Origin: Balanoglossus misakiensis | Taxonomy: Eukaryota > Animalia > Hemichordata | Length of the DNA stretch: 64,000 nt | Assembly (NCBI GenBank): GCA_040954595.2 | Contig: CM082576.2 | Coordinates: forward strand, 3,694,760-3,758,759 | Direction of reading: 5' to 3' | Shown: positions 6,186 to 17,336 of the stretch, piece by piece | How positions within the stretch are numbered: the stretch's first letter is position 1 | How the letters are laid out: each line of letters opens with the position of its first letter | Position numbers and translations under genes: made by a program | The notes under the pieces: model-generated | Told to the model about the DNA's origin: nothing | Database searches by the model: none | Seen by the model: the letters and a program-made list of their open reading frames with translations, nothing else

Positions 6186-9100
6186 ATGAGAACTCACACC
6201 TCGCTTAGTGTCGGTATTTTGCTGTGTGGATTACTCCCGTATGTAAGTTATTCGGTGAGTGGAAAGTTATACAATGTTGAGTTATTTCGGCCGACAGACA
6301 AACACATGCACATTGGTAAATTACATGTACCAGATTAGGTTTGTTACTTTGTTCCAGCAGACTACTAGTATCTGAAACAGCAATATGTGTGGAAACCAAT
6401 TCTAGGACAGAAACACAACAAATATAAAGATCGAGTCACCCCTAAACCTGATCATAATCAGATTGCTGTATCGAAGTTTTTTTTAGCCTGCATAATATGT
6501 CGCCACCGATTCATTAATATTTACAACTAACAATGTGAAACCCGACGAACTCTGCTATACGGCATCGTATTATATGTACTCATCAGCCAAAGTGAAGAGA
6601 TGTATGGAGTATGATTTTTGTGGGTTTTGTTTGTTTGCGATTTTTTCATACAAACTTGCATGCGTTGCGTGGATTAGAGATATGCGTAGACTTTATGAAT
6701 TGTGACCATAGCCAGCAGCAACACCACACCCGTAAGTTGGACAAAAGATAGTTTCCATTGATCCGAAGAAGAAACAGGTCACAGACTTGTTGCTGAAGCC
6801 CGGTAGCAGTGAACCCAATACTGGTAGCTTTACAGGTCATCAAATCGGAGAGTAGTGGACTGAGAAGTTCCTCAATGTAAACAATCGAGCGGCTTTCTAA
6901 AGTGTATTTGGTATTCACAGAAATAACTCGTGATAATCCATACATTAAAACGTGATAATCGGGAAGTGGTCGTTTCCCGGTGGTAATGTTTTATTAATTT
7001 ACCGCTATGGCACTTGTTCTGGGTCGACACTTTTCCATCATCGTATGACCTTTTCTGTTTCCAGGGCTTCTTTTCAGTGACACTGTAAATTGTGTTAACT
7101 TAATTTCATTCTCCAAAAGTATGGCCAAGATTTATATTCCTTGGGTTAATTAGAAGGAAAAAATACTGAAAGAGGAAGTAAAAGATGAAATCAACAAAAC
7201 AACATAATTTGCATTACAAAGAACTGGCCATGGCCATCGACAACTGGTAAGACTTGGAGTGATGATCAGCTTGAAAGTCAAAGTAATTTTAGCCAAGCCT
7301 TCGAAAAGGTTTTTCTTGTCATCTTTCCCACAAACACTGGAACTTCGTGGAGGACTGGAAGAACTGTGATCACCTAGCAACCGCGTTGGGAGGAGACGAC
7401 TGATGAAATCAGAACGGAACGACGCATCATCTCTCAAATAAGCATCATCTCTCAAATAAACTTAGATTCCTTGATTTTACTTAGTCATCGATCAAAGAAA
7501 TAGCACCTCAAAGACAAAATAAAACTGTATGTTGAGGGCTGGGGATTTCGAGGTTTCTCAGTTGAGAGATTCCAATGTTCAATATCATAATTTTTGGTAA
7601 ATAAAAGGCCAATTTCATCCATTTGCTTAAATTAACCCGTTTGATCGGATTGGTTATATACCAGTGTATTACAAACACACATGAAAATATTTATATATCT
7701 TTCCCTCTTGTAAGGTAAATGGAATTCCAACAGCGGTTCCTGAAAACAAGTCGTGCGTCCCGTGTGACCAATCATCCCAACATGGAAAATCCTGCTTCAT
7801 GTGTACCACGAACCTGACTTCGGTTTTGCAGAATGGAACCAATGGGTCACTACAACCGTGCCAGCCTGACACGACGCAGCAGCAGAACAGAAGTCTGACA
7901 ACCAACACCACCGCAGGGTGCCATGGGTCGTCTGTCGCTTACGCGTGTCGTTTGCTGCTCGGCAACGACGAGGTCCACAACGGATCAAGTTGGATGTGTT
8001 GCAGGTAAAGTACGGCACGCCCAGTCAAAAAATATCGATTATCGCATCCCGCCTACGGCGCGGGGCTAATGCTACAATAACACTAACCCAGGAAAATGCA
8101 TGGTGCAACAGGCCCCGTTAATACTAGAAAAGGGAAGATGGTGCATTATACGAAACCAGTCACCGATCATATGAAACCAGTTTTGTATCCCTGTGTCAAA
8201 GAATTTAGATTTATTTATAATAAAACTCAGAAAGCTTAGTGATGAGGAAGACTAATGCAATTGGTATTACATAAAATCCTCAAAGTTCATATGGTTCAAA
8301 CAATTATTGCACTCAATCGTCAGATTTCCTGACCTGCGCGTGTGGCTGGTATGAGGGCAACGTTAAAATCGATTTGACCCAGGGCGAACGTCTGAAAATA
8401 TTACTGATAGAAACTGTTTGTATTTTTATTTACTCACCAGAGATGGCTGGGAGAGTCAAGGCAGTGGGGAAGAAGATGAACAAACAGCATACGGGACTAA
8501 TCACAGTCATGTTGTCTACTATGTTCTTATTCCGTTGATGTTTTTCATTGGTTTGTTCCTGGGTATGCTGTGCTGTTACCTGGTCTACGTCAAAAGGGTC
8601 AGTGTGTGGCCGAGTTTACGTGCCAAATGTGTAAGTGATGATGATAGGCGAGAACGTCTATCATCTTCTCCATCGATTCGGTTTTAGTCCGGACTGGCAC
8701 CAGACATGACGGCGTGCAGTTGTATTTAGACTCTCTCGTCGAGAGTTTATGCCATGTTATACAAATAGCACGGATTCCCCGCGTACGTGCGACCGTAAGG
8801 CGTTATCTGAGCGGGCAATCTTCATGTTCATAGACAGAGCGAATGTCACTCTCAATAACATAAATACCACCCCGATACAATTTACTTAGATTTTATGTAT
8901 TTATACATTTTTATTTCCCATACTCTTTCAGTGTCCTTGCTTGGAAAACAAATGGGTTTTATCTGATATAACTATTATTGACGAACCTCAGGTAAGACCT
9001 CTCTCTCTCTCTCTCTCTCTCTCTCTCTCTCTCTCTCTCTCTCTCTCTCTCTCTCTCTCTCTCTCTCTCTCTCTCTCTCTCTCTCTCTCTCTCTCTCTCT

Positions 9101-15600: not shown

Positions 15601-17336
15601 AGACCAGAGATTCCCCTATGATTTTTTTTTTCACATTTTCAACGGCAATGATAAAGTTGGAGGAGAGAGAGGGTGAGGGAGGGATGTATCTATTGTGATA
15701 AGCATAATATCATACCTGGAAGCACTTTTCCGTTTGTCTATTGCAAATATGCGGATCTGCCTATCTCATGTCGTCAACTTCAAAAGTGGTAGAAATCACG
15801 AATAGATTTCACAAATAATAAGGATTCGGATATCTGATTTCGGAAGGGAAACAACTTCGCTGTGTGGTAGGATATTTATGAAACCTGGCTTACTTCTTCT
15901 CTGATTACTTCTTATCAGCTTGTTCTTGAAGAAGAGTATCGAATGTCTGGTCACCAGGCCGATGCTCCAAAGACGATGTCTTTCTTGAATAACCAACGAG
16001 ATTTAGAAGTTCACATGACCGAGATCGACCCAGCCTGGAAGATTGGTGGTACGGGACCGATTCAGGTATCGTCTGCAATTGTATTCTTTTGATGTATGTC
16101 TAACTTAACAAAATGAGTCGATTAAGACTTATGACAACAGTGTCGTGGTGCAAATTATAACCGATTTACGGGGGCGAGGTGTCGAGTATTTGAAGGATGT
16201 TCTCGTCGTTCTATGTTACAGGCGACAGATCGAGTGACTGTGTGGGCTGCAATCTATTTTATTTTGTAAAGATTGATTTTCACGGGCGCCATAGCCCGCT
16301 TTGGTTGGGGGTGTACGGGTCTAAACTGGAAGACTTTTCTCTTCTACTCCGTGGCACTGCGTACGACTGATTCCCTTCCTTTTGCCACTTTTTTTCTCGT
16401 TGTTAATACTACTCTAGTTATAGTTGATCACTGGGCGATACACATTTAATATGTTTGTGACCGTCTCCCTATATCTGTCTTTTATTTTTACAGAGCATCG
16501 ATTACGAAGTGGTGATGTCCTCGTCTTTTTCGGCCTGCTCTTACAGCATGTCGAAACAGGACAAGACGGCGAACACCTTCGACTGCGTTGTCAACGCCTT
16601 CCAGAGAGATAATGCAAAGTATGACGAAAACAACAAACAGCCAGTTTATTTCACCATCAATGAATCGGTAGGTACAGTACAGTACAGTACAGTACAGTAC
16701 AGTACAGTGCAGCGCAGCGCAGCGCAGCACAGCACAGCACAGTACAGTACAACAGTGCAGTGCATTGCATTGCAGTGCAGCGCAGCGCAGCACAGTACAG
16801 AACAGTGCAGTGAAGTGGTGTGATGCGGTAAGGTGAATGTATGGTGAAGTGGTATACTAGTATGACATAAAGTGCGGTGTACTTTACAGTTAACACCTTA
16901 CCAGAAATTACACGATACCAGAAAAAAGCACGTCACAATCTTTTTCAACTTGCAGAAACCGCCCGCAGCCCAGGACATCGACGCCCGTTACAAAGTGAAA
17001 GAGAGCCGAAGGAATAACCCTCGCTTGAAATACAGCGACAGGCTGAAACTGAGCCTTTTGCTGGACCCAAACAGTCCCCTTGGCAACGATTGGAGGATGG
17101 TGGCCGACAAAATGTCTCTCGATTACGACACCATTCAGCAAATTGAGGAACAGTTCCTGGCTGGCATTGTGCCAAGCCCGACCAGAGAGGTTCTGAATTA
17201 CTGGGATGCGACGAAGAAGGACGCTCCTCTTGGCGACTTGGTGGTAATATTTGAGGATATAGAACGACTTGACGCGGTCGAAATTGTGAGAAACGCGATG
17301 CAAAGTTCCAGCAAGGACGGCCAGGCGTCTAGATAA
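12607..17336 (+). CDS. Type-I membrane receptor B, tandem paralog of receptor A (SP, Cys-rich, TM, ZU5-UPA-DD)
   Basis: Exons 12607-12669 (MTGARLLFWSFGVTLLLLQSK), 13367-13620, 13821-13989 (TM), 14270-14323, 14607-15572 (ZU5, THFTGF), 15919-16065, 16494-16667, 16956-17336 (DD: GNDWRMVADKMSL..SPTREVLNYW). Same eight exons and intron phases as receptor A. Confidence 0.88.
16673..16810. repeat. Degenerate pentanucleotide microsatellite (CAGTA/CAGCG/CAGCA)n
   Basis: Direct reading; intronic in receptor B. Confidence 0.95.

Follow-up and report, generated by a model that had tools for sequence, protein, structure and literature searches.

The 64,000-nucleotide stretch of the acorn worm Balanoglossus misakiensis analysed here (the window; assembly GCA_040954595.2, contig CM082576.2, positions 3,694,760 to 3,758,759 of the forward strand) carries two intact tandem paralogs, gene 1 (6186-11616, +, 8 exons, 788 aa) and gene 2 (12592-17336, +, 8 exons, 740 aa). 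As read from the sequence, both encode single-pass membrane proteins that join a Cys-rich ectodomain to a cytoplasmic tail made of ZU5, UPA and a death domain (DD). The best clue to their mechanism is a His-Phe-Thr motif at the end of ZU5, a motif absent from an earlier note made on this DNA from its letters alone. We give about an even chance to the reading that the two proteins are self-cleaving receptors in which a cue from outside the cell would free the UPA-DD part for innate-immune or cell-death signalling.

Exons were joined at GT-AG sites read from the window sequence, and neither gene contains an internal stop. Each has seven GT-AG introns with identical junction phases (0,2,0,0,0,0,0), and the exon order is the same: signal peptide, Cys module, transmembrane (TM) helix, a short exon (54-60 nt) encoding an LSDI motif, linker with ZU5, two UPA exons and DD (Table 1). 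Signal peptides were called from the hydrophobic N-terminal exon and from orthologs; in gene 1, cleavage is likely just N-terminal of IPT (aa 23), and the same G-IPT boundary lies in the same place in XP_070576814.1. Searching the 64 kb revealed no third ZU5 gene and no additional ectodomain exon.

The closest proteins come from other acorn worms: Glandiceps XP_077992651.1 (P0001), Saccoglossus XP_006824791.1 (P0002) and three from Ptychodera flava, XP_070576814.1 (P0004), XP_070576827.1 (P0153) and XP_070576812.1 (P0151). RefSeq labels the orthologs 'UNC5C-like protein'. P0004 and P0002 are orthologs of gene 1 and P0153 is that of gene 2; the presence of a gene-1 ortholog in Saccoglossus makes the duplication an old one among acorn worms. 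Three RefSeq gene predictions from two species (P0004, P0153 and P0002) unite the signal peptide, Cys module, TM helix and tail in a single protein, in agreement with the splicing of the ectodomain to the ZU5 tail on which the earlier note depended. Each P. flava protein matches its own window ectodomain exon (P0004 that of gene 1 at E 1.6e-6, P0153 that of gene 2 at E 3.6e-6), and both alignments cross the predicted junctions, except at the gene-2 juxtamembrane Cys stretch. Together with the canonical splice sites and the phase-2 junction of exons 2 and 3 at CCR in both paralogs, this makes it very improbable that the ectodomain exons belong elsewhere than in the ZU5 genes and that wrong exon joining produced the receptor, as might be suspected from the Glandiceps P0001 and P. 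flava P0151 models, which begin near the TM exon. These two models may be truncated annotations or natural ectodomain-free forms.

In the tail, ZU5 and Death lie above the Pfam cut-offs in both genes. UPA, split over exons, gives a weak signal (E 7e-4 for one gene-2 exon, no match for gene 1) but in P0004, the ortholog of gene 1, it clears the cut-off of 27 bits with 31.4 bits. A profile of nine family rows matches the UNC5B structure 3g5b over residues 7-396 of 405 in one stretch (E 1.2e-43), indicating that the entire ZU5-UPA-DD supramodule is present. The domain order first proposed for both genes, from signal peptide and one-exon Cys ectodomain to TM helix and tail, is thus borne out by the exon models, Pfam, the 3g5b match and the orthologs.

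At the end of ZU5 both genes read HFTGF; HFTG is invariant in the nine close family rows (9/9), and the HFT of the Saccoglossus ortholog aligns with the QLG of UNC5B, which does not cleave. Among the relatives that could be aligned over the motif (147 of 155 rows), 99 have HFT, 14 HFS, including seal UNC5CL (HFSLY), and 9 HFC, and the four true UNC5 rows have QLS, QLT, QLH and HLS. Passages of PMC9162469 describe self-cleavage of PIDD1 at His-Phe-Ser and name Ser, Cys and Thr as residues whose side chains can act as nucleophile, a passage of PMC3210808 places the motif Phe at UNC5B Leu-677, and excerpts of PMC10084454 and PMC7883297 have autoproteolysis kept by Unc5CL and not by canonical Unc5. 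By analogy with these proteins, the tails of genes 1 and 2 likely cut themselves between Phe and Thr at the ZU5 end.

To place the two genes, we searched a set of representative proteins, which gave 442 at E <=0.001, and built a tree of the tail from 34 hand-chosen rows (32 database proteins and the two window genes; 402 columns, LG+G4 without mixture). The seven hemichordate rows form a clade (100/98) that contains a gene-1 group (99/97) and a gene-2 group (100/100) and is sister to three crinoid rows (100/98). The four true UNC5 rows make a separate clade (100/100), as do the ten rows around seal UNC5CL (100/100). A constraint that unites the hemichordate, crinoid and UNC5CL rows lowers the likelihood by 18.3 log units, with an approximately unbiased test value (p-AU) of 0.032. 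The weight of this test is moderate, because the grouping was chosen with a preliminary FastTree tree already in view, no mixture model was used and long-branch joins were warned of elsewhere in the tree. By the tree and this test, genes 1 and 2 are orthologs of neither UNC5 nor UNC5CL.

The tree bears on another explanation, in which the proteins would be developmental or homeostatic UNC5-like dependence receptors with an endogenous non-netrin ligand, causing death when the ligand is absent and having no particular immune role. The tail is the UNC5 supramodule, its closest solved DD is that of UNC5, and the gene-1 and gene-2 groups are stable across several acorn worms, as for developmental genes. 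Nevertheless we consider this explanation unlikely, given the separation from UNC5 in the tree, the lack of Ig and TSP1 domains and the HFT motif, which is kept here, unlike in UNC5B. Gene 1 does contain a DITD motif, which we take to be the UNC5B caspase site, but the motif is not retained in the P. flava ortholog.

How far the architecture extends was examined in the best 150 of the 442 proteins, with the TM placed by a hydropathy rule and 30 chosen rows scanned with Pfam. Of these 150, 96 show no TM ahead of ZU5 and 3 are multi-pass; among the rest, the TM lies within the first 70 residues in 31 and is preceded by more than 70 residues in 20. The 20 long ectodomains belong to four true UNC5 proteins, four amphioxus proteins with a single Ig domain and a similar one without match, four proteins with furin-like repeats (three with HFT), one LRR+TIR protein without a DD match, the two orthologs and four others that were not classified. 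An HFT-type tail lies behind a TM and a single Ig domain in amphioxus P0033, P0054, P0090 and P0118, and behind furin-like repeats in amphioxus P0039, in P. flava P0040 and in a further relative, P0056. The occurrence of Ig, furin-like and LRR+TIR ectodomains on HFT-type tails indicates that ectodomain swapping on this tail is recurrent, so that the 'novel class' of receptor first proposed was an overstatement: the acorn-worm proteins are one lineage variant. P0019 is a Toll-like LRR-TM-TIR protein with an HFT-type ZU5 at its C-terminal end, and P0025, P0029 and P0031 are multi-pass membrane proteins with a C-terminal ZU5 that has no HFT. The hemichordate family is not described in the titles and abstract openings of the literature retrieved. 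The Liao 2014 survey of ZU5/GAIN/Nup98 domains could mention such architectures.

The ectodomain is a module of 85-94 aa encoded by a single exon in both genes. Its Cys are spaced 2,9,2,18,19,8,16,0 in gene 1 (9 Cys) and 2,7,2,10,28,17,0 in gene 2 (8 Cys). Four of the five ectodomains available (two window genes, three orthologs) share C-x2-C-x(6-9)-C-x2-C, with twin-CxxC spacings of 2,9,2, 2,7,2, 2,6,2 and 2,9,2, followed by at least two Cys and then CC. The fifth, from Saccoglossus, has six Cys and a single CxxC; its first and sixth Cys are missing together, as would be expected if the two were bonded to each other in a folded domain. In both paralog groups the orthologs retain the Cys frame. 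Other features noticed at first in the window genes hold less widely: the WMCCR end is present in both, but only the terminal CC is invariant (GVCCR in P0153, VICCP in P0002), and the many N-x-S/T sites (7 in gene 1, 4 in gene 2) are not conserved, as the counts in the orthologs (0, 2, 3) indicate. Likewise, both window genes have Cys after the TM helix (KD19 peaks 2.4 and 3.0), but this juxtamembrane cluster is absent in P0153.

Between the two window genes, BLASTP aligns only WMCC of the ectodomains (E 0.049), and their score is reached by 1 of 500 full shuffles but by 27 of 500 shuffles that keep the Cys, as expected from the earlier claim that they share little beyond the Cys frame. By the same measure the ortholog pairs are alike beyond Cys, none of 500 Cys-kept shuffles reaching the score of either pair. 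Compared with their P. flava orthologs, the ectodomains of gene 1 and gene 2 are 36% and 38% identical, the cytoplasmic linkers 43% and 35%, and ZU5, UPA and DD 58-78%. The ectodomain thus diverges about as much as the linker, which suits low constraint as well as it suits the fast-evolving ligand-binding module of the earlier note; at the sequence level its divergence rate does not mark it as a selected ligand-binding surface.

We then asked whether the module resembles a known domain. Pfam gave no usable match on any of the five ectodomains (best E 0.016, BRINP, in one member), and a five-row profile run against PDB sequences gave at best an unrelated protease (E 0.62). In a large protein search restricted to longer proteins, the same profile found 2 matches among 6727 candidates, both of them input sequences, and missed P0153, indicating limited sensitivity. 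The best ESM Atlas scores, 0.80 for PRIMA1 and 0.79 for TNFRSF12A, lie under the bar of 0.9, with a structure TM score of at most 0.40. AlphaFold produced four strands for the 60-residue Saccoglossus ectodomain (predicted local distance difference test score, pLDDT, 70.7; predicted template modelling score, pTM, 0.52). With this model, Foldseek returned no match at E 0.001 in the PDB and viral libraries, and a VIA fold search of 48,161 chains reached a best Z of 4.3, none being >=5. The best 50 fold-search rows listed contain no three-finger, TNFR, PSI or defensin entries, which does not by itself exclude these folds. Three-finger, LU and activin-receptor ectodomains have a C-terminal CC-x4-CN motif; no Cys lies between the terminal CC and the TM in any of the five ectodomains. 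A furin-like origin was also rejected: with a profile of furin-like repeats taken from ZU5 relatives, between 28 and 171 of 200 shuffles that kept the Cys reached the score of the ectodomains, and the hhalign probability was 0.4%. Likenesses to beta-defensins, CLIP and Shisa were weighed by Cys spacing only. The view that no described receptor family fits the ectodomain therefore stands across the Pfam, PDB, Atlas and fold searches, and we call the module unclassified rather than a new fold.

The sole sequence lead is integrin beta-1, of which residues about 6-61 match a three-row gene-1 profile at E 0.28; the match is not significant and is gone with the five-row profile. We take this Cys stretch of integrin beta-1 to be a PSI domain. 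PSI domains have a Cys upstream of the first CxxC and a Trp in CxWC. The ectodomains share with them, in 4/5 cases, a twin CxxC with a 6-9 residue spacer but lack both the leading Cys and the Trp of the second CxxC, and the four-strand model is without the short helices described for PSI. Excerpts of PMC3405059, in which the Cys numbers of the RON PSI domain give a spacing of 2,8,2, describe PSI domains as hinges, and an excerpt of PMC9604360 describes them as CXXC disulfide isomerases.

Such descriptions agree with an alternative in which the ectodomain would be a glycosylated, disulfide-held spacer or a twin-CxxC redox or folding module, and the proteins UNC5CL-like membrane adaptors or co-receptors that may cluster by way of their TM helices. 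Non-Cys identity between orthologs is 31-32%, against 75% for the gene-1 TM; Ser and Thr make up 20-23% of the modules, the loops are variable, and crinoid sisters lack the module. We regard this alternative as rather doubtful, considering that the Cys frame persists in both paralog groups, that ortholog likeness goes beyond Cys and that a twin CxxC is not found in Saccoglossus. As for clustering, the gene-1 TM equals ZU5 in conservation (identity of 75% with P. flava and of 50% with Saccoglossus), a hint that it does more than anchor the protein, but the gene-2 TM is only 33% identical to its P. flava ortholog. A further conserved segment of about 30 aa lies directly before ZU5 (about 9630-9730 and 14890-14995, +); it is 75% identical in gene-1 orthologs and similar in crinoid relatives, and is possibly a family-specific helix.

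Returning to the self-cleaving receptor, known ZU5 proteins suggest how it might work. The two pieces would stay associated after the cut, as fragments of CARD8 do according to a passage of PMC3210808, and the resting state would be closed, with the DD folded back on ZU5, as UPA-DD is in UNC5B in the parts of PMC9162469 consulted. More speculatively, a ligand or other outside cue could act on the ectodomain; the UPA-DD piece would then be freed and assemble an innate-immune or cell-death signalling complex, with a conceivable output through IRAK/MyD88-type or FADD/RAIDD-type adaptors. Several observations weigh against such a model. A cleavage motif alone is no proof of cleavage. The solved sequence nearest to the DD is the UNC5 DD, those of MyD88, PIDD and FADD all being weaker, so that no adaptor is indicated, and the effect of UNC5CL itself is conflicting in the titles seen, which make it an NF-kB inhibitor or an IRAK activator. 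Copy number is low, with two genes in the window and three types of paralog in the P. flava rows retrieved, unlike in expanding pattern-recognition families. The crinoid sisters P0006 and P0009 have fewer than 30 residues before the TM, and the tail can thus exist without a Cys-module ectodomain. For the gene-2 ectodomain AlphaFold gave no usable fold (pLDDT 38.5), and the ectodomain surpasses the linker in conservation in neither a clear nor a consistent way. A bolder version, which we put forward only tentatively, is that the proteins are cell-surface counterparts of PIDD1 and CARD8, with an undescribed small disulfide beta-domain controlling release of the self-cleaved UPA-DD piece, and one branch of an unrecognised invertebrate receptor repertoire in which this module, a single Ig, furin-like repeats or LRR alternate as ectodomains in front of a self-cleaving ZU5-UPA-DD tail.

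Table 1. Exons and predicted sites of genes 1 and 2 (positions in the window).
Feature	Positions	Strand	Basis or detail
Gene 1 exon 1, signal peptide, aa 1-19	6186..6242	+	exon model and ortholog XP_070576814.1
Gene 1 exon 2, unclassified Cys-rich ectodomain	7715..8004	+	9 Cys, WMCCR end, 290 nt
Gene 1 exon 3, acidic stalk and TM helix	8441..8630	+	helix about 8514-8591
Gene 1 exon 4, juxtamembrane CPC and conserved LS(D/E)I motif	8932..8991	+	
Gene 1 exon 5, acidic linker, conserved pre-ZU5 segment, ZU5, UPA start	9240..10274	+	ZU5: Pfam 9738-10004
Gene 1 His-Phe-Thr, predicted self-cleavage site	10119..10127	+	aa 493-495
Gene 1 exon 6, UPA	10571..10717	+	
Gene 1 exon 7, UPA	10831..11007	+	
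Gene 1 exon 8, death domain and stop	11206..11616	+	Pfam 11296-11553, E 2.7e-10
Gene 2 exon 1, signal peptide	12592..12669	+	LxQSK end common to ortholog XP_070576827.1
Gene 2 exon 2, unclassified Cys-rich ectodomain	13367..13620	+	8 Cys, WMCCR end, 254 nt
Gene 2 exon 3, TM helix and juxtamembrane Cys cluster	13821..13989	+	helix about 13840-13926
Gene 2 exon 4, LSDI motif	14270..14323	+	
Gene 2 exon 5, linker, ZU5, UPA start	14607..15572	+	ZU5: Pfam 15003-15269, E 7.4e-21
Gene 2 His-Phe-Thr, predicted self-cleavage site	15390..15398	+	aa 447-449
Gene 2 exon 6, UPA	15919..16065	+	E 7e-4, below cut-off
Gene 2 exon 7, UPA	16494..16667	+	
Gene 2 exon 8, death domain and stop	16956..17336	+	Pfam 17046-17297, E 1.4e-16

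The window holds several other genes. An open reading frame (ORF) or exon of the IL-17 family (18903-19586, -; Pfam E 9.9e-16) lies some 1.6 kb past the end of gene 2, in tail-to-tail orientation. Two long single-ORF LRR-Roc-COR (Roco) genes (39972-43895 and 49854-53198, both -) are each followed by a DD exon; both ORFs start with Met-Gly, a possible myristoylation motif. The DD exon after the second is just above the Pfam cut-off (22.8 vs 22.6 bits), and that after the first (38984-39330, -) is divided between two reading frames, with a run of T nearby (about 39245-39260), through either a sequencing error or a broken exon. Pairing of the receptor DDs with the Roco DDs, once suggested, has their neighbourhood as its only reason; we found no evidence for it, and the DD exon that follows the first Roco gene carries the frameshift just described. 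Alternating with the Roco genes are three copies of a two-exon unit (36733-37997, 45477-46578 and 47500-48676, all -), in which a soluble N-terminal part of about 120-150 aa without Pfam match precedes a hydrophobic exon, with weak Ninjurin matches in two of the three (E 3e-5 and 0.0026, below cut-off). This alternation of Roco and ninjurin-like genes may form a repeated cell-death module. For an immune or death role of genes 1 and 2, the IL-17, LRR-Roco and ninjurin-like neighbours are weak context. Elsewhere, exons starting with a homeodomain helix-3-like WF/LRNxRxRQRR lie at 21542-22162 (-), 24291-24722 (-), 30927-31430 (-) and 35368-35865 (+), and 30917-32225 and 34577-35866 are an inverted duplicate with 89% identity. 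Upstream of gene 1, TPR exons (1422-3007, -; Pfam TPR matches only) seem to us to resemble TTC8/BBS8.

Finally, we compared genes 1 and 2 with known systems. The labels 'UNC5C-like' and 'Netrin receptor UNC5' hide distinct invertebrate families, of which the present one has a narrow known range, acorn worms. UNC5A-D and UNC-5 (UNC5B, 3g5b) are likewise type-I membrane proteins with a full ZU5-UPA-DD, but UNC5B has QLG where the window genes have HFT, they form a separate clade, and their Ig, TSP1 and Unc5_NetrinR_N domains, all matched by Pfam in the true UNC5 rows, gave no match on the ectodomain exons or the ortholog proteins. The other invertebrate HFT-tail proteins with Ig, furin-like or LRR domains have different ectodomains, and those in the tree all fall outside the hemichordate-crinoid clade. 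PIDD1, NLRP1 and CARD8 share with the window genes ZU5-UPA, a death-fold domain and a cleavage motif at the ZU5 end; they are cytosolic with an LRR, NACHT or disordered N-terminus, whereas the window proteins are membrane-bound with an extracellular module and one ZU5. UNC5CL has a single TM, the ZU5-UPA-DD tail and His-Phe-Ser/Thr at the ZU5 end in common with them; it has no ectodomain according to a passage of PMC10084454, whereas the window genes encode a signal peptide and Cys module and lie outside the seal UNC5CL clade. Self-cleaving ZU5-UPA sensors studied so far are thus cytosolic (PIDD1, NLRP1, CARD8) or ectodomain-free (UNC5CL), and the small acorn-worm receptors, which add a possibly new small extracellular domain, offer a direct test of how an outside signal could trigger such a tail. 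By these likenesses, genes 1 and 2 most plausibly work like UNC5CL, or like a PIDD1 placed at the membrane.

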